Of a stretch of 32,000 bases of DNA, positions 39 to 21,463 are shown in pieces. The notes beneath the pieces were generated by a model. The model saw only the letters and a program-made list of their open reading frames with translations, ran no database searches and had not been told where the DNA came from. Made by a program: the position numbers and the translations under genes. The stretch covers positions 1 through 32,000 of the forward strand of contig CAZQQS010000002.1 of assembly GCA_964595665.1 (NCBI GenBank). Direction: 5' to 3'. How positions within the stretch are numbered: the stretch's first letter is position 1; every line of letters starts with the position of its first letter. The DNA comes from an uncultured archaeon (GTDB lineage Archaea; Iainarchaeota; Iainarchaeia; Iainarchaeales; 0-14-0-20-30-16).

Positions 39-220
39 AATTAATCTCCTGTGCTTCCATAGCACCCCGGCCAATTATATAATTAGAACATATATATTTA
101 AAAAAGAAAGAGCAAATAAGAATCTAAAAAATAATATCTATGCGCCTTTAAATGACACACGAAGTAAGATCTTTAAAGATAGGTAATAAAATTTTGATTT
201 TTAAGAAAAAATTTTATTAT

Positions 221-293
221 GACCCCTGTGGGATTCGAACCCACGACACACGGGTTAAAAGCCCGTTGCTCTACCAGACTGAGCTAAGGGGCC
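221..293 (-). tRNA. tRNA-Lys (anticodon UUU), no genomically encoded CCA
   Basis: The reverse complement folds by hand into a cloverleaf. Acceptor stem is GGCCCCT/AGGGGTC, D stem GCTC/GAGC, anticodon stem ACGGG/CCCGT with loop C-U-UUU-A-A. The variable loop is 5 nt and the T arm is GTGGG-TTCGAAT-CCCAC. The base after the acceptor stem is A, then T, so CCA is not encoded. Confidence 0.93.
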
Positions 294-398: not shown

Positions 399-1328
399 AT
401 GTTTTTTCCTCAAGAATTTTTAAATAAGATGCAATTAATCTTAGGCGATAGCGAATTAGAAAACTTAAAAACTGCTTTAGATACGCATTTAAGAAAAAGT
501 ATTAGGATTAATACTTTAAGAGCCGATCCAAAAACAACTGTAAATAGTTTAGAAAAACAAGGATTTAAATTAGAAAAAATGCCTTGGTACGATTATGGGT
601 ATTTTATTTCAAATGAAGATAAAACAAAAAGAATAGGAAATACATTAGAACATTATTTAGGAAAAATCTATGTTCAAGAAACCTCTTCTATGCTTCCAGT
701 AATTGCATTAGATCCTAAACCAGAAGAACATATCTTAGATATGTGTGCTGCACCCGGATCAAAAACATCACAAATTGCAATGCACATGAATAACTCTGGA
801 TTGATAGTTGCTAATGAACCTTTAATACAAAGAATAAAACCTTTACAAGAAAATTTAGATAGATCTGGATGTATTAATGCAATAATTACAAGAAACGATG
901 GAAGAAAATTTGCAAACCATAAAGAATTATTTGATAAAGTTTTATTAGATGCACCTTGTTCAAGTGAAGGTACATTTCAAAAAGATATTCAATCAAGATA
1001 TGCTTGGTCTATAAACAAAGTTAAACAATTATCTATTTTACAAAAACAATTATTTGATTCAGCATATGTTGCATTAAAAACAAATGGAACATTAATTTAT
1101 TCTACATGTACAATGTCTCCAGAAGAAAATGAAGAAATTATTAATTATGCTTTAGAAAAATATGATCTAGAAATTTTAGATTTAAAATTTAAAGGATTAA
1201 ATACGAGTAATGGATTAACATATTACTTAGATAAAGAATTTAATAAAGAAATAAAAAAGAGTGTGAGAGTATGGCCCCAAAACACAAACATCGAAGGTTT
1301 TTTCGTGACGAAACTGAAAAAACTATAG
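399..1328 (+). CDS. RsmF/NOL1-NOP2-Sun family RNA (cytosine-C5)-methyltransferase, N-terminal and catalytic part
   Basis: SAM-binding motif DMCAAPGSKT, catalytic PC motif DAPCSSEGT and TC motif LIYSTCTMSPEENE are present. The N-terminus FPQEFLNKM...RKSIRINTL and the end VWPQ..EGFFVTKLKK run colinear with E. coli RsmF as I recall it. The frame stops at 1326-1328, just after an A6 run. Confidence 0.9.
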   Translation: MFFPQEFLNKMQLILGDSELENLKTALDTHLRKSIRINTLRADPKTTVNSLEKQGFKLEKMPWYDYGYFISNEDKTKRIGNTLEHYLGKIYVQETSSMLPVIALDPKPEEHILDMCAAPGSKTSQIAMHMNNSGLIVANEPLIQRIKPLQENLDRSGCINAIITRNDGRKFANHKELFDKVLLDAPCSSEGTFQKDIQSRYAWSINKVKQLSILQKQLFDSAYVALKTNGTLIYSTCTMSPEENEEIINYALEKYDLEILDLKFKGLNTSNGLTYYLDKEFNKEIKKSVRVWPQNTNIEGFFVTKLKKL

Positions 1329-1795
1329 ATCCAGATTACGAAGAATTAAATAAAATAACATCTAAAAAGATATTTGGTTTTTTAGACGAAGCTTATGGTG
1401 TTTTAGAAAAAGATGTTGAAGAATTAGTTTTCTTAAAAAAAGGAAAAGATGTTTGGATTACAAATAAAAGTGCCAAAAATTTTATTTCTTTTGAAAAGGT
1501 ATTAACTATTAATTCTTTAGGTATGCGAGCTATAAGAAATGCTTTTGATAAACCAAAAATCACAACTAATTTTGCAATTTTCTTAAATGATAAACTTAAA
1601 AAAAACATTTATGATTTGAATGATAAAGAATTAGAATTATTTACACATGGTTTTGATTTAGATTTAAATAATAAAGATCTAAAACAATATGTGGTTATGC
1701 GTTATAATAAACAAATTTTTGGTGTTGCAGTAGTTTCAGATAACAAAATAAAAAATCAAGTTCCAAAAGGAAGAAAATTAAAAAACCAAATTTAA
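1271..1795 (+). CDS. RsmF C-terminal (PUA-like RNA-binding) domains in the -1 frame; probably the continuation of 399..1328
   Basis: The tail YVVMRYNKQIFGVAVVSDNKIKNQVPKGRKL matches the RsmF PUA-like C-terminal signature (..[22 protein letters not shown] in E. coli RsmF). The only ATG is at 1271, 58 nt inside the upstream ORF. The frame has no ATG between the upstream stop (1328) and Met-84 (about 1520). Confidence 0.75.
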   Translation: MAPKHKHRRFFRDETEKTIDPDYEELNKITSKKIFGFLDEAYGVLEKDVEELVFLKKGKDVWITNKSAKNFISFEKVLTINSLGMRAIRNAFDKPKITTNFAIFLNDKLKKNIYDLNDKELELFTHGFDLDLNNKDLKQYVVMRYNKQIFGVAVVSDNKIKNQVPKGRKLKNQI

Positions 1796-9408: not shown

Positions 9409-10155
9409 TCATAAATTTAATTCTTTTAATTTTTTAATTTCTGGTAATTTTAACAAACCTAATTCATTATCAATTGCAATTACTTTTAAATCTTCAAAAT
9501 TTACTAATTTTTTTAATATTGGACTCAATAAATCTTTTTGCTCTTGCAAATTAATCTCTGAATTTGCACTTAATGGAGAAAAACTTGGCAACACTATAAA
9601 ATTTTTATTCTCCAAAGTTTTACCATACAAAAAACAAGGTAATTTGAATTTTTCAAACCCCTCTCTTAATACTATTCCGGGTTGCTCATGTCCTATAATT
9701 AAAGTAGTATATTTTTCTGAATTTGTTTTAGGAAATGCGTGCCCATGAATAAATAAATATTCGTCAATTAACGCCTCATCAACAATTCTAATTTGATATT
9801 TATTTAAAATATTTTGCAAAAAATTATCATGATTACCTTTTACAATAATTATTGTTTTTACATAATTTAAAACTTCAGCAATAAAAAAAGTTATATCATT
9901 CCATTCTTGATTTGCAGCTAAAGAAAAGTCGTGTTTAAAATCTCCATTAATTAATAATTTCTCTGCTTTAGTTTCTTTTAATATCTTTACTAAGTTTTCA
10001 GTCATTAATTTAGTTTGAAATTGAGGAACAAATAATCCTTTTGTTGCAAAATAAGATTCTTGTCCAATTTGTAAATCAGACACAACCAACAATTTTAGAT
10101 CTTCAAAATATAATGCTTTATCAATTGCTTTAATTTTAGAAAAAATTTCAATCAT
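9409..10155 (-). CDS. Calcineurin-like metallophosphoesterase (Lhr-associated MPE/PdeM-like nuclease)
   Basis: Metallophosphoesterase motifs are VVSDLQIG, INGDFKHD, VKGNHDN, FIHGHAFP and IIGHEQP. Its start codon overlaps the lhr stop by 1 nt (TAATG). Confidence 0.8.
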   Translation of the reverse strand: MIEIFSKIKAIDKALYFEDLKLLVVSDLQIGQESYFATKGLFVPQFQTKLMTENLVKILKETKAEKLLINGDFKHDFSLAANQEWNDITFFIAEVLNYVKTIIIVKGNHDNFLQNILNKYQIRIVDEALIDEYLFIHGHAFPKTNSEKYTTLIIGHEQPGIVLREGFEKFKLPCFLYGKTLENKNFIVLPSFSPLSANSEINLQEQKDLLSPILKKLVNFEDLKVIAIDNELGLLKLPEIKKLKELNL

Positions 10156-12788
10156 TAATTACCAACTCTATCAATAATCTTTTTATGTAAATCTAATAAT
10201 ACTTTTTTTCTATCATCCATTAAAACAATATCTGCATCAGATAATACTAATAAATTGTGTGCAAACGGACTTGCCAAATTACTCTCTTGTAAAACCTCTA
10301 ATTTAATTTCATTATTCTTTATTTTATTTAAAATATTTATTGCACTATCAATATCCATATAATCTTGCATTATTTCTCTAAAAGTTTCATCAACTATTGG
10401 GAAATTCTCGATAGCATCACAAATTTTAAATAATCTATCGGCAGACATTTGTTGTCTTCCTGCAGGATTTTCATAACCTTTATAATTTCTTAATATCATT
10501 AAAGATCTTGAAGCTACGTGTCTAAATTTTCTTTTTAATAATTCAGTTTGTTTTAATGCTAATCTTAAAATTCCATAAAAATTATCTTCTCTTAAAGATT
10601 TAAATAATTCATATGGGGATGTAAATAAATTATCTCGGGCATGAACTGTCAAAATAAAACCATTATCATTTATTGTAATAGGAATACTTCGCCCCAAATT
10701 TCTTGACAAAACAAACCCTAATGCTCTGGATAAAGCATCATTTACTCTTCTACCATATAACGCGTGAAAAATAAAATTTTTATTTCCGCCTTCATCGATA
10801 TATGTTTCTACTAATAAAGTTTTATTACTTGGATAAGATTTTGCTTTTACAGAATCTAAAAACTTTTGTTGATAATAAAAATAATCGCTTATTGCTTTTG
10901 CAGCATGTTCATCAATAGGATAATTTTTTGTTAAATAATTTTTAACATCACTTTTAGATTTTAATTTATTTAATTTAAAAATATCATCTCTAAATTTTCC
11001 GATTTCTAAAGCCAAATCATGATTCAAAGGTAATTGTTCTGAAAACCACGAAGGCACAGTAGGCTTTTTATCTTTTAACGGAATAACCATCGCAGTCATA
11101 CCTAAAGAACGAGAAAATTGATAACTCTTACCAGCTAAAACAAAAATATCTCCTTTTGATAATCTTCCCAAAAATTCTTCTTCTATTGTACCTACATTAT
11201 CTCCTTTAGTAGTTTTTACTTTTACTTTAACTTCATCAGGAATTGTTCCAATGTTCATTGAGTAAATCATTCGAGCTAATCTTCCTCGCTTTCCAAATTG
11301 TCCCAATAATTCATCATACCAAATTTTGCCATAAACATGTTTTTCTTCTAAAGAATGATATTCTCCTGACAAATATTTTATTACTCTCATGTATGTTTCA
11401 TAATCTAAATCTTTATAACAATAAGATTTTTTTATTAAGTCAAATGCATCTTTCAAATACCATTTATTTTCTAAGCTCATTCCAACTATTTGTTGTGATA
11501 AAACATCCAAAGCATTTTTCACAATATAAATTCTATCTAACCAATATTCAGACGCTTTATTAAACATCACAGTTGTTTCAATTAAATCATCTCTATCCAA
11601 ACAAATAATTCTTCCTTTAGATGTTTGATGTAATTTATGGTTACTTCTACCTACTCTTTGCAAACCTCTTGCAACACTTTTAGGGGAGCCAATTTGTATT
11701 ACTAAATCTACATATCCAATATCAATTCCCAATTCTAAACTTGTTGAACTTACTATAACTTTTAATTTTCCTTCTTTTAATTTTGTTTCTAAATCCAATC
11801 TTGTTCCTTTTGCAACACTTGAATGATGTGCACCAATATCATCTTCACTATAAGTTTCTGGAAAAGTTTCTTTTAAATGATGGACAATTCTTTCAGTTCC
11901 ACTTCTTGTATTTGTAAAAATTAAAGTTGTTGTGTGTGTCCTAATCATTTTATCTAAGTATTCATATAAATTAGAATTAATTTCTTCTGCATCAGTATAT
12001 AATAAATCTTGTACAGGACTTAAAATCTTGATATCTATTTTCTTTGAAAATCTACCATCTACGATTATACAATCTCTAGGCTCATTATTTTCTTCACCAA
12101 CCAAATATTTAGCAACTTCTTCCAAAGGCTCGATTGTTGCTCCTAAACCAATTCTAATTAATTTTCCTTCTGTTAAGTTTTGCAAACGTTCCAAACTCAA
12201 AGATAAGTGCACCCCTCTTTTGGAATTTGCTAATTCATGAATTTCATCAATTACAATATATTTTACATTTTTTAGTTTTTCTTTAAATTTTAATGTGCTT
12301 AATAATATTGCTAATGTTTCTGGTGTAGTGCATAAAATATGTGGGGGTTTTCTCAATTGTTTTGCTCTTTCTTTTGCTTCTGTATCCCCAGTTCTTATTC
12401 CTACTCTAACATCTAATTTTAGTTTATATTTTTTCTTTGCCAAATCTTCAATTTCATCTAATGGCTCTAAAAGATTTCTGTTAATATCATTAATCAAAGC
12501 TTTCAAGGGGCTAATATATATACAATATACTTCTTCTTTCAATTCTTTTTTTTCTGATTTTTTAAATAAGTCATTTAATATTGCTCCAAAAGCAGAAATT
12601 GTTTTTCCTGATCCTGTAGGAGCCGTTACCAAAGTGTTTTTTCCTAAATGAATAGAAGGTATAGATAGCTTTTGTGGAGGCGTAAACAATTTAAATTTGC
12701 CAATAAACCAATCTTTTACATATGGTCTAAATAAAGCAAATACTTCCTCGTCTTTAGGAGCCTTGTCTACAGAAACACTTTTGATCAT
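10155..12788 (-). CDS. lhr: Lhr-type large SF2 DEXH-box helicase
   Basis: Walker A TAPTGSGKT, DEIH box VIDEIHEL, SSTSLELGIDIG and motif VI QRVGRSNH are present. A long Lhr-like C-terminal domain (about 450 aa) follows. Total length is 877 aa. Confidence 0.88.
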   Translation of the reverse strand: MIKSVSVDKAPKDEEVFALFRPYVKDWFIGKFKLFTPPQKLSIPSIHLGKNTLVTAPTGSGKTISAFGAILNDLFKKSEKKELKEEVYCIYISPLKALINDINRNLLEPLDEIEDLAKKKYKLKLDVRVGIRTGDTEAKERAKQLRKPPHILCTTPETLAILLSTLKFKEKLKNVKYIVIDEIHELANSKRGVHLSLSLERLQNLTEGKLIRIGLGATIEPLEEVAKYLVGEENNEPRDCIIVDGRFSKKIDIKILSPVQDLLYTDAEEINSNLYEYLDKMIRTHTTTLIFTNTRSGTERIVHHLKETFPETYSEDDIGAHHSSVAKGTRLDLETKLKEGKLKVIVSSTSLELGIDIGYVDLVIQIGSPKSVARGLQRVGRSNHKLHQTSKGRIICLDRDDLIETTVMFNKASEYWLDRIYIVKNALDVLSQQIVGMSLENKWYLKDAFDLIKKSYCYKDLDYETYMRVIKYLSGEYHSLEEKHVYGKIWYDELLGQFGKRGRLARMIYSMNIGTIPDEVKVKVKTTKGDNVGTIEEEFLGRLSKGDIFVLAGKSYQFSRSLGMTAMVIPLKDKKPTVPSWFSEQLPLNHDLALEIGKFRDDIFKLNKLKSKSDVKNYLTKNYPIDEHAAKAISDYFYYQQKFLDSVKAKSYPSNKTLLVETYIDEGGNKNFIFHALYGRRVNDALSRALGFVLSRNLGRSIPITINDNGFILTVHARDNLFTSPYELFKSLREDNFYGILRLALKQTELLKRKFRHVASRSLMILRNYKGYENPAGRQQMSADRLFKICDAIENFPIVDETFREIMQDYMDIDSAINILNKIKNNEIKLEVLQESNLASPFAHNLLVLSDADIVLMDDRKKVLLDLHKKIIDRVGN

Positions 12789-12854: not shown

Positions 12855-13766
12855 TTAATCCTTCAAAGTATAAACTTTTAATTCTTCTCCGATAATGGAG
12901 TTTTTGAAGATTCTTTTTGCTTCTTTTTGCATTGAACTTAAATCATGATAACGAGCACTAAAATTCATTAAAACTAAAGATTTAACATTAGCTTGCTTTG
13001 CAATATTTGCAACATCTGTTACTACTGAATGCTTGTGCTTTTTTGCTTGCAATCTATCTTGCTCTAAAAACATAGATTCATGAAATAATAAATCCAAATC
13101 TTTAATAAATTCAGAATAATTTTTATCATTTAAATCTACAATATACCCCAAAGATTTACCCTTCTTAACAAAAGTATAATCCATTACCATATCTGGAGTA
13201 ATAATTTTATTATTATATTTGACTTTTTTTCCAGCTTTTAATTCAGAATACAAATTACTTTCGGGCAACCCTAAAGCAATAGCTCTTTCTTTAACAAATT
13301 TTCCAATTATATCTTTTTCTTTCATTACAAAACCATAATTTTCTATTCCGTGTCTAAAATGTTTTGCGTGTATTTCATATTTATCATTTGAATAAACTAA
13401 ACCCTCTTTTAATTCTTTGTAAATAATTTTAAATAAGGGTTTAATTTCAAATAATTTTAATATATTATTTATTCGAGTTCTTACACCTTTAGGACCAAAA
13501 ATATGTAAATCATTAGTTCTGCTATTAAGAGACATTGTTGCTATTAAACCTGGTAAACCTAAAAAATGATCTGCATGAAAATGAGATATAAAAATTTTAG
13601 ATATGTCCATATAACTATAAACACTTTTCATTAATTGTTGTTGGGAACTTTCTCCACAATCAAATAATATTAATTCTGCATCATATTTTACTGCTAAAGA
13701 AGAATGATTCCTATCATTTACTGGAACAGAACTACTTATCCCTAAAAGACTAGCATTAAATGTCAT
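12855..13766 (-). CDS. rnz: Ribonuclease Z (tRNA 3' endonuclease)
   Basis: Metallo-beta-lactamase motif ISHFHADHFLGLPGLI (HxHxDH) and the C-terminal KHSVVTDVANIAKQANVKSLVLMNFSARY are typical of short-form RNase Z. Length is 303 aa. Confidence 0.88.
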   Translation of the reverse strand: MTFNASLLGISSSVPVNDRNHSSLAVKYDAELILFDCGESSQQQLMKSVYSYMDISKIFISHFHADHFLGLPGLIATMSLNSRTNDLHIFGPKGVRTRINNILKLFEIKPLFKIIYKELKEGLVYSNDKYEIHAKHFRHGIENYGFVMKEKDIIGKFVKERAIALGLPESNLYSELKAGKKVKYNNKIITPDMVMDYTFVKKGKSLGYIVDLNDKNYSEFIKDLDLLFHESMFLEQDRLQAKKHKHSVVTDVANIAKQANVKSLVLMNFSARYHDLSSMQKEAKRIFKNSIIGEELKVYTLKD

Positions 13767-13810
13767 AAAATAATATATAAGTATAAATTTATATGTGTTT
13801 ATACTTTAGT
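13767..13810. promoter_or_regulatory. Divergent promoter region between rnz and the PIN-CCA gene
   Basis: A 44-bp spacer, AAATAATATATAAGTATAAATTTATATGTG..., has TATA-like boxes readable on both strands. The spacing implies very short or leaderless 5' ends. Confidence 0.3.
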
Positions 13811-15394
13811 ATGCAAATTAAAGTTTTTGATACTTCGGCTTTCTTAAATAGGTTTAACTTTCAGGATTTTTCTGAAATTTATACTACTAATTCAGTAATT
13901 AATGAAATCTTAAGCTCAGAAAACAAATTTATCTTTGAAAATTTAATTTCACAAAAAAAAATTAAAATTCAAGACCCAAAAAAAGAAACAATTATCAATA
14001 TGAAAAAAAAATGCCCTAAAAGCTTATCTAAAACAGATATAGAAATATTATCTTTAGCTTATGAATTAAAGGCAGAATTACATACAGATGATTATATGCT
14101 AAGAAAGATTGCAAATGATTTTAAATTAAAAATTAAAGAAACATTATACGATATAAAATTAGATTTAGATAAAATTTATAATAAAATAAAACCATCTGAG
14201 AAAGAATTAAAGGATATTGAAAATATAAAAAATGAAATAATCCCCAAAATTGAAACTTATGCTAAAAAAAATAAAATTCCTTTGAAAAAAGTTTTATTAG
14301 CTGGTTCAAGTGCGCGAGGCACTTTTATCCACAATAGCAAAGATATGGATATATTTTTATTATTTGATTTATCTTTAGACATTAATGAAATAAAAGAGCT
14401 AAATGAATCAATATTAAAAAATGTTTTCCAAAACTTAGAATTTAAAGAAGAATATGGTGAGCACCCCTACTTAAAAACTAATTACAAAAATCAAAATATA
14501 GATTTTGTTCCAGGATTCTATATAAAAAATATAAAAAATAAAAAATCCTCAGTAGATAGAACACCTTTACATTTAGAATTTTTAAACAAACATCAAGATA
14601 AAGAAATAAAAAAACAAGTTATTTTATTAAAACAATTTTTGAAAAATAATTTATTGTATGGAGCAGACCAAAAAAATAATGGTTTTTCAGGATATTTAAC
14701 TGAACTATTTATCTTAAAATACAAAACATTTGAAAACTGCTTAAAAGTATTCGCAAAAATTGAAGATAATAAAAAAATAACTTTAACTGATTTTCCCAAG
14801 AAAAAATTCGATGATTATTTAATATTTATTGATCCTACAGATATAAATAGAAATGTTGCTTCAGCAGTTTCTAAAAAAAATTGGGCAATATTAGAAAAAA
14901 TATCCAAAGATTATTTAGAAAACAAAAGTGAAAGTTTCTTTTTTAAAAGCTATTATAATTCAGATTTAACTAATAACATTACTTTTTCAATAAATGTTGA
15001 TGCTAATACTTTAGATACTAATTGGGGCATAATTAAAAGTATTGCAAATAAACTAAGAAATGAGTTGAATAATAAAAACTACAATATTGAAAAATATTCT
15101 GGAATATATTCTAATGAATTAGGATATGTAATATTACAAAGTAAATTAAAGAATACTTTAAGAGGCCCATTAACAACAGATAAAAAAAATGCAAAAGCAT
15201 TCTTAAAAAAACATCCTAAAGCATTTGAAAAGAATAAACAATTATATTGTGATATAAAATTCACTAAAAAAGATATAATTGATTATACTAAAAAAGTGTT
15301 TAAGAAAAATTATCCTAAATTAAAGATAAAACTCGCAAATATTAGCGAAATAAATGACTTAAATAGAGTAAAAAAGGACTTTTTTGACTTTTAA
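13811..15394 (+). CDS. cca: Fusion protein: N-terminal Nob1-type PIN nuclease domain plus archaeal class I CCA-adding enzyme
   Basis: Residues 1-120 carry PIN features: VFDTSAFL, NEIL, SKTDIEILSLAYELKAELHTDDYMLRKIANDFKLKI. Residues ~125-527 are colinear with archaeal CCA-adding enzymes as I recall them (GSSARGTFIHNSKDMDIFLLF, GEHPYL, VDRTPLHLEFL, GFSGYLTELFIL, DPTDINRNVASAV). It is one uninterrupted frame. ATG at 13811 is preferred over 13793. Confidence 0.85.
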   Translation: MQIKVFDTSAFLNRFNFQDFSEIYTTNSVINEILSSENKFIFENLISQKKIKIQDPKKETIINMKKKCPKSLSKTDIEILSLAYELKAELHTDDYMLRKIANDFKLKIKETLYDIKLDLDKIYNKIKPSEKELKDIENIKNEIIPKIETYAKKNKIPLKKVLLAGSSARGTFIHNSKDMDIFLLFDLSLDINEIKELNESILKNVFQNLEFKEEYGEHPYLKTNYKNQNIDFVPGFYIKNIKNKKSSVDRTPLHLEFLNKHQDKEIKKQVILLKQFLKNNLLYGADQKNNGFSGYLTELFILKYKTFENCLKVFAKIEDNKKITLTDFPKKKFDDYLIFIDPTDINRNVASAVSKKNWAILEKISKDYLENKSESFFFKSYYNSDLTNNITFSINVDANTLDTNWGIIKSIANKLRNELNNKNYNIEKYSGIYSNELGYVILQSKLKNTLRGPLTTDKKNAKAFLKKHPKAFEKNKQLYCDIKFTKKDIIDYTKKVFKKNYPKLKIKLANISEINDLNRVKKDFFDF

Positions 15395-15433: not shown

Positions 15434-16234
15434 ATGTCAAATTTATTTGATATTAACAATTATACTGATGAACAAGAAATATTAAGAGAGATATCTAATT
15501 TTGAAAATAAATTGAAAAAGTGTAAAAATCCTATAAAACAAAAAGAATTACAAAATAATATCTACTTATTAAAAAGAGCACTGCAATCTATTTATTCTTT
15601 AGACCCAAAAAAATTACAATATAGAATAGATGATTTGCAAAAGTCTTTAATTAAAGAAAGAAATAATAATCAAGAATCAAAAATATTGGCAAATTATTTA
15701 AAATTTTTAGTAAATAAAAATATTGAAAAAATACAACACCAAAATATGGGTGAATTAAAGGAGTTAGTATCTCAAGATTCAATAGATTTTGATATGGTTC
15801 TAGAAAAAATTAAACCTAAAAATTATTCTTATACTAAGAATTATATGAAAGCAATTGAAAATTGGTATGAATTATTAGATGATGATTTTGAGATAATAAC
15901 TCAAAATATCCCTAATTTTACGCTAAATGCAAAAGAAATATTACAATTAAAATCAGGAACACAAGCAGATATTTGTATTTTAACTTGTGCAATAATGCAC
16001 AAATTAGGAGATTATGCTGCAAAAGTAAATTGTGCAGAATTAAATGATTTTGAAATAATTTATTTTGTACAAACACAATATAAGAAAAAGACTTTAATAT
16101 TTGATTTCTTTCATTCTATGAATTATAATGATTTTTATAACCTCGAAGAAAAGGTTTTTGACAAGTATAAACCAAATAGTAAAACCATTAGAAAAATAAA
16201 ATTTAGCTTTAATGCATTTGATTATGAATCATAA
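15434..16234 (+). CDS. Hypothetical soluble protein: coiled-coil N-terminus and a possible transglutaminase-like C-terminal core
   Basis: It has no TM segment or signal peptide. The C-terminal LKSGTQADICILTCAIMHKLGDYAAKV loosely resembles the Cys-containing helix of transglutaminase-like cysteine proteases, but no clear His/Asp partners are seen. Its end overlaps the first pilin-like gene. Confidence 0.5.
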   Translation: MSNLFDINNYTDEQEILREISNFENKLKKCKNPIKQKELQNNIYLLKRALQSIYSLDPKKLQYRIDDLQKSLIKERNNNQESKILANYLKFLVNKNIEKIQHQNMGELKELVSQDSIDFDMVLEKIKPKNYSYTKNYMKAIENWYELLDDDFEIITQNIPNFTLNAKEILQLKSGTQADICILTCAIMHKLGDYAAKVNCAELNDFEIIYFVQTQYKKKTLIFDFFHSMNYNDFYNLEEKVFDKYKPNSKTIRKIKFSFNAFDYES

Positions 16235-16691
16235 AGGTTTTTTTGCAACGATTATAATTGCATTAATTATATCTATGATCATTCTGTTTGTTGGATTAAA
16301 TGTTAAAACCTTAAATGCAGAAACTAATTTTTTTGAAAATATTCTAGCAACAAAAGAATTAGAATTTAAGAGAAATACTTTTGAATATAATTTATATTAC
16401 TTATTAAAATATAATTTGGATACGAGCTCTAAAGAAAGTCAAGATTTAGATTTAGTTAAAGGAAAAATAGATTTAATATTACTTAATTATTTAATAGAAA
16501 ATGAATTTTATTCTATACCCATAACAAGCTTATTAATAAAAATTGTTGATTGTATCCCTAATGATTGTGTATATTATAGCTATTCAATATTGTCTTCAAT
16601 TAAAAAAAATATCACTTACAAAAATAAAGAAATTACAATAGGAATCCCTTTAAATTATACCATATCTAATGTGGTGATAATTAATGAATAA
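16224..16691 (+). CDS. Type IV pilin-like protein 1 (class III signal peptide)
   Basis: The N-terminus is MNHKG/FFATIIIALIISMIILFVGL. A C-terminal Cys pair is DCIPNDC. The start overlaps the upstream gene by 11 nt. Confidence 0.7.
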   Translation: MNHKGFFATIIIALIISMIILFVGLNVKTLNAETNFFENILATKELEFKRNTFEYNLYYLLKYNLDTSSKESQDLDLVKGKIDLILLNYLIENEFYSIPITSLLIKIVDCIPNDCVYYSYSILSSIKKNITYKNKEITIGIPLNYTISNVVIINE

Positions 16692-16929
16692 AGGGCAAAT
16701 ATCCATCGCACTTTTAATTAGTTTAATATTAATTCTAAGTATATTTGCAATATTCCTAACAAAATTAAAAGACTTAAATAAATTAAATATAGAATTAGAA
16801 CAAAAAAATAATAACAATCTTACACGAATTAATAATATTGAGAATAGTTTTAACATTAAAAAAATTAACAATATTAATCAACCATATATTTTACAGCAGG
16901 ATGTAGATTATGAAAATCATTACGAATAA
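16684..16929 (+). CDS. Type IV pilin-like protein 2 (class III signal peptide), short with an Asn-rich tail
   Basis: The N-terminus is MNKG/QISIALLISLILILSIFAIFL. It shares an ATGAATAA overlap with the upstream stop. Confidence 0.7.
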   Translation: MNKGQISIALLISLILILSIFAIFLTKLKDLNKLNIELEQKNNNNLTRINNIENSFNIKKINNINQPYILQQDVDYENHYE

Positions 16930-17293
16930 AGCACAAATATTAATCGACTTGCCAATTGTAATTTTAACAATAATCCTTTGCTTTGTATTATTTTTTCAGA
17001 TATATGAAATAAAAAAATATAATAATTTTTTAGAATTGATAACTATAACAGAAAATGCAATTACTAAGAAAAACTCTAAAATTGGATTTGTTAACTATGG
17101 GGAAACAAAAACATTACATTCGAATGTTATTTCGGAAATTAGATTAGAAGATCCAATAAAAAGAATTACAATTTATGATTATAATTCTAAAATTTATGAA
17201 CAAGGAATTCATTGCGAAAAAGAAATAAATATCTCTAGAGGAGTAATTTATGAAAATAAAATTTCTAAAATCATATTCACATTTTGCAAATAA
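16910..17293 (+). CDS. Type IV pilin-like protein 3 (class III signal peptide)
   Basis: The N-terminus is MKIITNKA/QILIDLPIVILTIILCFVLFF, with Asp at +5. Outside the TM segment there is a Cys pair (IHCEKE ... FTFCK). It overlaps the upstream gene by 20 nt. Confidence 0.65.
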   Translation: MKIITNKAQILIDLPIVILTIILCFVLFFQIYEIKKYNNFLELITITENAITKKNSKIGFVNYGETKTLHSNVISEIRLEDPIKRITIYDYNSKIYEQGIHCEKEINISRGVIYENKISKIIFTFCK

Positions 17294-17630
17294 AAAAGGT
17301 ATTTTATTTATTATAGAAATGCTTTTAGTATTATTATTAATTTTAGCCGTACTATTAGGTTTAACTAAAATAAACTTAACTAATAATTATGACCAATATT
17401 ATAATTTTTTAAAAATAAATGATATTTATACAATCATCTTAGGAAAAAATATTTATGATGCAGATGAAATAAAACAATTAATAGAATTTTATATGCCTTA
17501 TTCAGAATATGAAGTTATAAGTAATAAATTAATATCAAATAATATTACAAAAAACAATTGTTTAATAAAAAATATTGAGATTTATCATGAAGGAAATAAA
17601 AAAGCTATTCTAATTAAGATTTGTTATTAG
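17250..17630 (+). CDS. Type IV pilin-like protein 4 (class III signal peptide)
   Basis: The N-terminus is MKIKFLKSYSHFANKKG/ILFIIEMLLVLLLILAVLLGL, with Glu at +6. A C-terminal Cys pair is NNCLIK...KICY. There is no alternative in-frame start before the hydrophobic core. Confidence 0.65.
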   Translation: MKIKFLKSYSHFANKKGILFIIEMLLVLLLILAVLLGLTKINLTNNYDQYYNFLKINDIYTIILGKNIYDADEIKQLIEFYMPYSEYEVISNKLISNNITKNNCLIKNIEIYHEGNKKAILIKICY

Positions 17631-18042
17631 AAATATACCACAAAATTAATATTAAAAATGACATTAATATCCAACCTAAAAAATGAACTAAGTTAAAATG
17701 ATTTGGAGATATAAAAAATATTAATAATCGTAAAATATTTGCCAAATATAATATTGCCGAACCAAAAATACTGTAAATTAATTTCTGTTTCTTGTTTAAA
17801 TTAGTTAAGGGGCTTAACATAATTGCTAAAAATACAAATATAGAAAAAAAACCAGAACATTCATAATCTATAAGCATATTTGTTGAATTTAAAACAACAA
17901 AACCATTAGAATCAACTAGATTTAAAGCATGAAAAAACTTAATAACTGGGTATTCTAATGGCAAAAAGCTTAATGTATAAAACAAGATTAATGCCAAAAC
18001 AACATAAATTATGAAGAAAAGTACCTTTTTCTGAGAATCCAT
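17614..18042 (-). CDS. Minimal archaeosortase/exosortase-family protein
   Basis: It is a 142-aa polytopic membrane protein with the family's Cys/Arg/His triad in the expected order and context: IDYECSGFFSIFVFLAI (C62), LANILRLLIFF (R105), NLVHFLGWILMSF (H120). Confidence 0.7.
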   Translation of the reverse strand: MDSQKKVLFFIIYVVLALILFYTLSFLPLEYPVIKFFHALNLVDSNGFVVLNSTNMLIDYECSGFFSIFVFLAIMLSPLTNLNKKQKLIYSIFGSAILYLANILRLLIFFISPNHFNLVHFLGWILMSFLILILWYISNNKS

Positions 18043-20707: not shown

Positions 20708-21463
20708 ATGGGATTAAGACCAGGAAGATGTTGTAGAAATATAGAGCGATCTTTTACTAGAATTGCTCCAAAAGTTCAAAGAAAGAACTTTTTAGGAGGA
20801 GTTCCAGGAGTAAGAACAAGAGACTTCGCAATTGGAAACCAAACTAAAGATTATAATAGTGTTTTAGACGTTATAGCTAAAGAAAGTATCCAAATAAGAG
20901 ATAACGCTTTAGAAGCATTAAGACAAAAATTGGTTAAGAAATTAACTGCAGAAGTTGGAAAAGAAGAATATTTTATAAAAATAAGATTATATCCTCACCA
21001 CATATTAAGAGAGCACAAATCTGCTTCTGGTGCTGGTGCCGATAGAGTATCAAAGGGTATGAAATTAGCTTATGGTAAAAATACTGGAAGAGCTGTTCAA
21101 ATTAGAAAAGGACAAACTTTATTATCTATTGTAGTAGATGCGAGTAATATTGCAAAAGTAAAGAAAATTATAGATACTATAAGATACAAAGTAAATATGG
21201 CTTTTGAAGTAAAACAAGGAATACACGAAAACAAAAAATTAACTGGTAGAAAGAAGTGGACTAGAGAAGCAAAATTACAAAAGTTACAAGAGCCAGTTAA
21301 AGAAGAAGCTAAAGATGCTAAAGGTAAAGCTCCTGCTAAAGGTGGAAAGGCAGCACCTGCTGCTAAAGCAGATGCTAAAGCTGCTCCAGCTGCTAAAGGT
21401 GGAAAGGCAGCACCTGCTGCTAAGGCAGATGCTAAAGCACCAGCTAAGAAAGGTAAGAAGTGA
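20708..21463 (+). CDS. rpl10e: Ribosomal protein L10e (uL16) with a ~85-aa Lys/Ala/Pro-rich C-terminal extension
   Basis: The N-terminus MGLRPGRCCRNIERSFTRIAPKVQRKNFLGGVPG and the segment LYPHHILREHK...GAGADRVSKGM are classic L10e. GAGGG precedes the ATG. The tail is KGGKAAPAAKADAKAAPAAKGGKAAPAAKADAKAPAKKGKK. Confidence 0.92.
   Translation: MGLRPGRCCRNIERSFTRIAPKVQRKNFLGGVPGVRTRDFAIGNQTKDYNSVLDVIAKESIQIRDNALEALRQKLVKKLTAEVGKEEYFIKIRLYPHHILREHKSASGAGADRVSKGMKLAYGKNTGRAVQIRKGQTLLSIVVDASNIAKVKKIIDTIRYKVNMAFEVKQGIHENKKLTGRKKWTREAKLQKLQEPVKEEAKDAKGKAPAKGGKAAPAAKADAKAAPAAKGGKAAPAAKADAKAPAKKGKK
21335..21445 (+). repeat. Near-perfect tandem duplication (57-bp unit, about 2 copies) inside the L10e tail
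   Basis: GCTAAAGGTGGAAAGGCAGCACCTGCTGCTAAAGCAGATGCTAAAGC... recurs at 21335 and 21392 (19-codon period). It differs by one A/G change and a short indel near the end of the unit. Local GC is far above the window background. Confidence 0.85.

Follow-up and report, generated by a model that had tools for sequence, protein, structure and literature searches.

The question raised by this locus is why an archaeal CCA-adding enzyme should carry an endonuclease domain of the Nob1 type at its N-terminus, and on which RNA this nuclease might act. The locus lies in a window of 32,000 nucleotides, i.e. positions 1 to 32,000 of contig CAZQQS010000002.1 on the forward strand, to which all coordinates refer. 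The gene in question, at 13811..15394 (+), encodes 527 amino acids (aa) followed by a stop codon, and residue numbers are counted from its Met at 13811. A preliminary description of the window had proposed that one uninterrupted open reading frame (ORF) joins a PIN domain to a CCA-adding enzyme, and we indeed found no stop codon in this frame up to 15394, whether it is read from 13811 or from the alternative in-frame ATG at 13793. The start at 13811 appears to be the better choice, since distant homologues begin at the aligned Met and the ATG at 13793 sits within the palindrome TATAAATTTATA. The PIN_6-CCA combination is an undescribed, conserved domain architecture and gene module built of known enzymes. 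We found no description of it in the classification of the PIN superfamily (PMC5499597), in the paper on archaeal Nob1 (PMC3326319), in a survey of archaeal CCA enzymes (bioRxiv 10.64898/2026.05.29.728689) or by full-text literature searches.

Domain architecture of the fused protein

The protein consists of three parts. A Nob1-type PIN domain without zinc ribbon (aa 1-110, 13811..14140 (+)) matches both PIN_6 and the Nob1 of P. horikoshii (PhNob1). It is followed by an inter-domain linker (about aa 111-118, 14141..14164 (+)) and by what is predicted to be a complete class I archaeal CCA-adding enzyme with head, neck, body and tail (aa 119-527, 14165..15391 (+)), which matches TIGR03671. The PIN and CCA motifs quoted in the preliminary description are all present in the protein. 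The AlphaFold2 model of the fused protein, computed with an 88-sequence alignment, has a mean predicted local distance difference test score (pLDDT) of 95.3 and a predicted template modelling score (pTM) of 0.81. Its sole pLDDT dip, to ~75 at residues 111-120, falls between both parts, where the fused family varies in sequence and in length, with 19-28 residues between fixed anchor positions. The mean pairwise identity among the fused proteins is 62% for the PIN domain, 65% for the head and neck of the CCA enzyme, 45% for its body and tail, and 37% for the linker. This identity pattern and the variable linker length fit two constrained domains on a flexible tether.

Recurrence of the fusion

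The window probably comes from a metagenome-assembled genome (MAG), and the databases hold one PIN-only entry (P0121) that is 77% identical to the window's N-terminal domain, both of which could speak for an artefact, i.e. for a chimeric contig, a frameshift or the loss of a stop codon having turned two adjacent genes (PIN and cca) into one. At least 18 distinct full-length fused proteins of 38-100% identity however show this architecture without interruption, and they come from independent samples, assemblies and assemblers. They include 17 protein clusters of 527-551 aa, 38-100% identical, from NCBI, JGI, ENA and Logan, all of which have the PIN_6 and CCA domains. Among the GTDB species representatives, three have the full-length fusion, of which two bear the title Candidatus Diapherotrites archaeon, and a metagenome scan gave further fused copies (L065, L066, L074/75 and L076). 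P0121 is the sole split copy, and its contig has 0.5x coverage with Lhr, rnz and cca all fragmented. In addition, the N-terminal helix of the CCA enzyme follows the PIN domain directly, leaving no room for a start codon or a ribosome-binding region. An artefact is effectively refuted by the same fusion in so many independent assemblies, and we consider its probability negligible; the lost stop codon or frameshift that the preliminary description had allowed for is excluded by the same recurrence. The fusion is genuine and inherited, and it is confined to a small clade of low-GC, tiny-genome DPANN archaea whose MAGs are labelled Ca. Diapherotrites. Among the 150 best PIN matches of an exhaustive profile search over 1.84 billion representatives, long fused proteins make up two 50%-identity clusters and no more, so that the PIN-CCA architecture is rare and restricted to one clade.

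The CCA-adding enzyme half

The NCBIfam equivalog model TIGR03671 (cca_archaeal) matches residues 119-499 with 298.6 bits against a cut-off of 281.3, covering model positions 2-402 of 410, and on the Pfam side tRNA_NucTransf2 (112.6 bits) and NTP_transf_2 are matched. The C-terminal 409 residues match the class I CCA enzyme of A. fulgidus (AfCCA) at E = 1.8e-33. The motifs GSSARGT...DMDIF, IDFVPG, SVDRTPLH, GFSGYLTE and DPTDINRNVA align to AfCCA, and the signature motifs of the CCA enzyme are invariant or nearly so across 20 sequences. Using Foldseek, 420-444 columns of the fused model are aligned to 4x4o, 2zh7 and 1r89 (E ~1e-28; TM score ~0.66-0.69, normalised to the target), i.e. the AlphaFold2 model has the head-neck-body-tail fold of a class I CCA enzyme. 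Neither in the fused family nor in its nearest unfused relatives was a match reported to PF21133, Pfam's model of the CCA C-terminal part, which indicates that the body and tail are divergent. All features tested on the sequence and the model are those of a complete class I CCA-adding enzyme, as had been claimed before, and the C-terminal half is predicted to be one.

Archaeal CCA enzymes had also been described as stand-alone proteins of about 440 aa, with which our match list agrees: the unfused archaeal enzymes in it are mostly ~405-502 aa long, a few being shorter or partial, and have no N-terminal nuclease domain. The nearest unfused CCA enzymes are encoded in Ca. Ainarchaeum/Iainarchaeum MAGs. 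In a tree of the CCA domain the fused clade is supported by 46/100 bootstraps, a value too weak to order fusion versus fission. The window itself encodes a tRNA-Lys(UUU) at 220..293 (-) (ARAGORN and Rfam), whose 3' end ...AGGGGTC-A is followed by TAATAA. This tRNA has no encoded CCA, as noted earlier, so the organism needs a working CCA-adding enzyme. No tRNA gene was found in any of the 17 related loci examined.

Identity and catalytic residues of the PIN domain

The best PDB sequence match of the N-terminal 118 residues is PhNob1 (2LCQ, E = 2.5e-17), followed by yeast and human NOB1, and PIN_6 of Pfam matches residues 5-86 with 46.7 bits against a gathering score of 27. PhNob1 and the fused PIN are by eye roughly 45% identical over 105 aa. 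The whole-protein Nob1-like models of NCBIfam (PRK12496 series) scored below their cut-offs, the best one with 68.9 bits vs 268. The acidic residues D7, E32, D76, D93 and D94 are invariant in 17/17 fused proteins, and so is S73, the counterpart of the substrate-contacting S79 of PhNob1; the position of PhNob1 R115 is mostly Lys. This acidic set corresponds to D12, D82, D99 and D100 of PhNob1 and to D15, E43, D92 and D110 of the yeast protein, the roles of the active-site residues being those given in PMC3326319 and, for the four acidic residues of yeast, also in PMC5499597. The earlier assignment of a Nob1-like PIN with an intact acidic set is borne out by these matches.

PIN domains are versatile, and that of PhNob1 alone binds single-stranded RNA weakly and with little specificity (PMC3326319). 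Degenerate PINs with structural roles are also described, Utp23 being an example. The fused PIN could by analogy bind RNA for, or regulate, the CCA enzyme to which it is appended, or it could degrade RNA in general with no bearing on 16S or tRNA ends. We regard this as improbable, as the invariant catalytic residues, i.e. the four acidic positions together with the substrate-contact Ser, and the conservation of the domain do not make the pattern of a degenerate or purely structural PIN. Judged by its sequence, the PIN domain would be catalytically intact and under selection, being as conserved as the catalytic core of the CCA enzyme.

Two other nuclease families were rejected. A VapC-type toxin is not indicated, with no PF01850 match, rnz on the opposite strand as the upstream neighbour and the fused CCA domain downstream. 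For HARP, the PIN_5 protein-only RNase P, PF08745 reaches 18.6 bits vs 27 over residues 73-108 only, and the HARP matches in PDB have E values of 0.3 or worse.

The fused PINs differ from other PINs at two sites. The motif LNRF at aa 12-15 is present in 18/18 fused PINs vs 1/148 others; besides the fused PINs, including all new fused copies from metagenomes, it is carried by the PIN-only protein P0122 and is absent in the other PINs examined. The rnz-linked PIN-only genes have LNNFGP where the cca-associated PINs have LNRF. The second site is the QN pair after the catalytic DD, which is present in 85/103 ribbon-bearing PINs, most fused proteins having RK or RS instead. This QN-to-RK swap marks the fusion only in part, since the basal fused proteins (P0123 and L065) retain QN.

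Absence of the zinc ribbon and ancestry of the PIN domain

A zinc ribbon was found in all Nob1 homologues examined by Veith et al. (PMC3326319). According to the same study the ribbon of PhNob1 alone binds helix 40 of 16S rRNA with a dissociation constant (KD) of about 2 uM, the KD of the PIN alone being above 1000 uM. The PIN alone is 'only marginally specific' and binds a longer D-site substrate ~ten-fold more weakly than the full-length protein, and the ribbon was suggested to anchor Nob1 near the cleavage site. We found no CxxC motif anywhere in 17/17 fused proteins, and hence no zinc ribbon, which the preliminary description had overlooked. With the ribbon missing and the CCA enzyme directly after the PIN, the fused protein is not a canonical Nob1 in this respect.

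We classified 166 PIN domains, comprising the fused family and the other listed matches of the exhaustive profile search. A CxxC...CxxC ribbon is present in 103 of them and absent from 43, while 18 are fused and 2 ambiguous. Besides the two fused clusters, the listed top PIN matches are PIN proteins of 107-195 aa, mostly canonical Nob1 with a zinc ribbon. Ribbon-less Nob1-like PIN-only proteins of about 112-140 aa are common among the nearest relatives (43/166 top PIN matches), and one of them occupies a canonical Nob1 slot, which contradicts the published claim that all Nob1 homologues carry the ribbon. In this slot, divergently upstream of pheS-pheT, both the ribbon-less P0125 and the ribbon-bearing canonical Nob1 P0183 are encoded, and by this shared position the two look like positional orthologues, indicating that Nob1 orthologues can lose the ribbon.

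A quick neighbour-joining (NJ) tree of the PIN domains, computed without bootstraps, places all fused PINs in one clade together with the PIN-only proteins P0122 and P0124. Their next neighbours are the ribbon-less PIN-only proteins P0125, P0127 and P0135, followed by a mix that includes P0183. Our sequence comparisons show the PIN half to be a descendant of Nob1. The tree and the P0125/P0183 pair suggest that Nob1 orthologues in some lineages, probably of DPANN archaea, had already lost the ribbon when the fusion to cca took place.

The missing ribbon bears on the model put forward in the preliminary description, in which the PIN acts on tRNA. In its strict form the tRNA-binding CCA enzyme has replaced the ribbon as the anchor and, on a flexible tether, delivers the PIN to tRNA 3' ends as its exclusive role. 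The targets could be trailers that RNase Z cannot handle (CCA-containing precursors, for instance), or damaged or CCACCA-tagged ends destined for rebuilding or decay. This would agree with the weak and poorly specific PIN of PhNob1, for which the ribbon supplies the anchoring (PMC3326319), and with the CCA enzyme standing in the position of the absent ribbon. On the other hand, the loss of the ribbon predates the fusion on the NJ tree and is also seen in PIN-only genes beside unrelated genes, so that it is not specific to tRNA targeting.

We also looked for another Nob1. The window encodes no second PIN_6 gene, nor does one lie up to ~10 kb away from any of the fused genes, and phmmer over the window and 46 loci found no canonical Nob1 near the fused genes, these loci being a small part of each fused genome. 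P0183 and P0318 were considered as the canonical Nob1 proteins of fused genomes as their source patterns matched, but both come from other assemblies.

Gene order around the fused gene

The fused gene faces rnz, which encodes a short-form RNase Z of 303 aa at 12855..13766 (-) (TIGR02651, 300.1 bits vs 292.95), across a divergent spacer of 44 bp at 13767..13810. Both the neighbour and the spacer are as first reported. The perfect, AT-rich palindrome TATAAATTTATA lies at 13782-13793, about 22-24 bp from each start codon, and may be a bidirectional TATA element for two leaderless mRNAs. The spacers of related loci are 44-111 bp long and their sequence is not conserved, the palindromic TATA being specific to the window; a conserved bidirectional promoter across these loci was therefore rejected.

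A G+C-rich element, TACTGTCTA(A/G)TGGGCA, is conserved just upstream of the fused start in L002 (~9965-9985), L003 (~9974-9991) and L074 (which has the L003 spacer sequence). The spacer is otherwise AT-rich there, and the element is absent from the window.

The pairing with rnz is conserved. It is seen in the window, L001-L003, L047, L051, L066, L070, L074/75 and L076, i.e. in every fused locus with visible upstream DNA, and still holds where the protein identity has fallen to 38%. The P0124-type PIN genes of the unfused sisters likewise point away from rnz on the other strand: in L067 and L073 the two adjoin, and in L049/50, L069 and L071 a single gene intervenes. L049 has MFS, RsmB/F and PUA in common with the window as additional synteny. 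In L048 the PIN-only gene P0122 is complete with its own stop codon and stands head-to-head with an unfused cca. These gene orders tie the PIN clade to two enzymes of the tRNA 3' end, rnz and cca, in three arrangements. No rnz or PIN gene was found within 10 kb of the unfused cca genes of sister lineages. The distant ribbon-less PINs have other neighbours, namely pheS-pheT for P0125 (L052-L054), RtcB-enolase for P0135 (L055-L057) and RFC for P0127 (L058-59), which refutes the idea that all ribbon-less PIN-only genes stand beside tRNA 3'-end genes. Only the fused clade and its closest sisters have the rnz/cca link.

Two neighbours of rnz were seen in passing. The gene between rnz and the PIN gene is, in L049 (5364-5948 (-)) and L050 (2734-3318 (-)), a GGACT-like gene on the rnz strand with a weak match to gamma-glutamyl cyclotransferase-like proteins. 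In the window an Lhr-type helicase (877 aa; DEAD, Helicase_C, WH_Lhr and DEAD_assoc), followed by a calcineurin-like metallophosphoesterase (MPE), occupies 9409-12788 (-). This Lhr-MPE-like pair lies directly upstream of rnz, and Lhr fragments lie in the matching position in L047.

Function of the PIN half

We see about an even chance that the PIN half is the lineage's Nob1 and still makes the mature 3' end of 16S rRNA. The preliminary description had not weighed this simpler alternative. It is favoured by the descent from Nob1 orthologues with the catalytic and contact residues kept, and by the fact that the loss of the ribbon is not clade-specific, the fused PINs being nested among the ribbon-less relatives. 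Parsimony in reduced genomes also favours it, as does the role of archaeal Nob1 proven in vitro, i.e. the formation of the 16S 3' end by the enzymes of P. horikoshii, M. psychrophilus and M. maripaludis (PMC3326319; PMC10515664). The strict tRNA model meets a further difficulty here, as the lineage still needs 16S 3'-end maturation and no second Nob1 was seen in the window or the loci examined.

Under this Nob1 reading the fused protein would have two activities and belong to a module for the 3'-end maturation of stable RNAs. The CCA half would add CCA to tRNAs after the cut by RNase Z. The PIN half would be a metal-dependent endonuclease, and as the P. horikoshii enzyme uses Mn2+ the same is assumed here. 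Acting as Nob1, it would cleave 16S rRNA to the mature 3' end at the D-site (UCACCUCCU|), the ribbon having been lost, on the NJ tree, before the fusion. Fusion and pairing with rnz could then provide co-expression and perhaps a substitute RNA-binding anchor.

Several points weigh against the PIN being simply Nob1. The zinc ribbon that anchors Nob1 to helix 40 is absent from the fused proteins, and the RK or RS in place of QN in most of them suggests a changed substrate surface. Simple co-regulation would predict less than is observed, i.e. three arrangements that link the PIN to rnz and cca, and an LNRF motif that is specific to the cca-associated PINs. Only a small part of any fused genome is visible, and a separate canonical Nob1 is possible.

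It is possible, at somewhat below an even chance, that RNA bound to the CCA half is a target of the PIN, be it in addition to 16S rRNA or in its place, an estimate that overlaps with the one for the Nob1 reading. The restriction of LNRF to cca-associated PINs, the replaced QN pair in most fused proteins, and the gene orders, with PIN genes that face rnz in fused as well as unfused form and that are joined to cca or, in L048, stand opposite a separate cca, are all in line with the anchor having been exchanged. Bacterial class II CCA enzymes, whose HD phosphohydrolase domain is implicated in tRNA 3'-end repair, offer a precedent for a hydrolase joined to a CCA polymerase. The basal fused proteins P0123 and L065 keep QN however, and with an endonuclease tethered beside the active site of the CCA enzyme, finished ends might be cut to no purpose. 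We consider delivery to tRNA ends as the exclusive role rather unlikely.

A more specific form of the tRNA model is a 'cut-and-rebuild' or 'tag-and-cut' machine of the tRNA 3' end, which we hold to be doubtful. Here the PIN would cleave off a trailer, a damaged end or a CCACCA tag for degradation, after which the polypeptide itself would either rebuild the tRNA end or commit the tRNA to decay, with RNase Z being co-expressed from the shared promoter. As for the preliminary description as a whole, the fusion, the intact Nob1-type PIN, the complete CCA enzyme and the divergent rnz all stand. Its link to the tRNA 3' end is strengthened by the conserved rnz pairing, the PIN gene facing cca in L048 and LNRF, and on these sequence comparisons its trimming or repair model is plausible.

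Comparison with known systems

The fused protein shares with archaeal Nob1 (PhNob1 2LCQ; PIN_6 / COG1439) the PIN fold family, the best match and the invariant equivalents of D12/D82/D99/D100 and S79. It differs in having no zinc ribbon, in continuing into a 409-aa CCA enzyme, and in its mostly RK instead of QN and its LNRF. It is like the class I CCA enzymes (AfCCA; PDB 1R89, 1SZ1 and 4X4N) in the equivalog hidden Markov model (HMM) matched, the signature motifs and the predicted fold, and unlike them in the additional N-terminal nuclease domain of ~118 aa. The Cca protein of E. coli, a class II enzyme with an HD domain, is likewise a CCA polymerase joined to a hydrolase acting on RNA 3' termini. 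This is an analogy only, as the enzyme is of class II and not I, its hydrolase is an HD phosphatase/phosphodiesterase and not a PIN endonuclease, and the domain order and the domain of life differ.

The AlphaFold2 model also matches a chain of the human small-subunit (SSU) processome, 7mq8_NH (Foldseek, E = 3e-10), which we take to be the NOL6/Utp22 homologue, the match record giving the entry title only. Utp22 has no catalytic activity and is not known to be fused to a nuclease, in contrast to the CCA half in the window, which has every catalytic motif and must serve tRNA. The eukaryotic Utp22 / NOL6 proteins have a CCA-enzyme-like fold in the SSU processome and take part in small-subunit rRNA maturation (PMC3794860). 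The likeness consists in a fold of the class I CCA-enzyme type that is linked to small-subunit rRNA biogenesis.

To our knowledge, class I CCA-adding enzymes are treated as stand-alone proteins, and the definition of Nob1 requires a zinc ribbon besides the PIN. The fused protein breaks both rules in a conserved, selected way. If its PIN is the lineage's Nob1, then Nob1 would work without the ribosome anchor, and the maturation of tRNA and small-subunit rRNA would be physically tied. If the PIN has been redirected to tRNA, this would be the first endonuclease-polymerase tRNA 3'-end editing enzyme in archaea and a natural test of the model that the anchor domain sets the specificity of the PIN. 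It might then also supply the activity for tRNA precursors that RNase Z does not process, a question raised in PMC5499597. Under cut-and-rebuild, reduced and exosome-poor archaea would have turned a ribosome-biogenesis nuclease to the quality control of tRNA ends, and the lineage would mature its 16S 3' end without a classical Nob1.

Other features of the window

The window is an ordinary archaeal chromosome segment with 25% GC, encoding among others Orc1/Cdc6, LonB, FttA/aCPSF1, a proteasome beta subunit, TYW3, uL16, XPD and Lhr. The ORFs of an RsmB/F-type RNA m5C methyltransferase at 399-1328 (+) and of its PUA-like RNA-binding domain at 1271-1795 (+) overlap by ~58 nt, and the same split with an overlap is seen in L049 (1717-2649 and 2592-3128), from a related genome. 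Two explanations come to mind, a conserved frameshift and two genuinely separate genes. The uL16/L10e ORF at 20708-21463 (+) encodes 251 aa, of which the Pfam domain covers residues 22-167 only. The last ~80 aa may thus be a C-terminal extension or a result of misplaced gene boundaries.

Directly downstream of the fused gene, at 16212-17630 (+), lie four consecutive small ORFs with no Pfam match. Their N-termini (...HKG|FFATIII, NKGQ|ISIALL, NKAQ|ILIDL and KKG|ILFIIE) resemble archaeal class III (type IV pilin-like) signal peptides, and they are followed by a weakly exosortase-like membrane protein at 17614-18042 (-).

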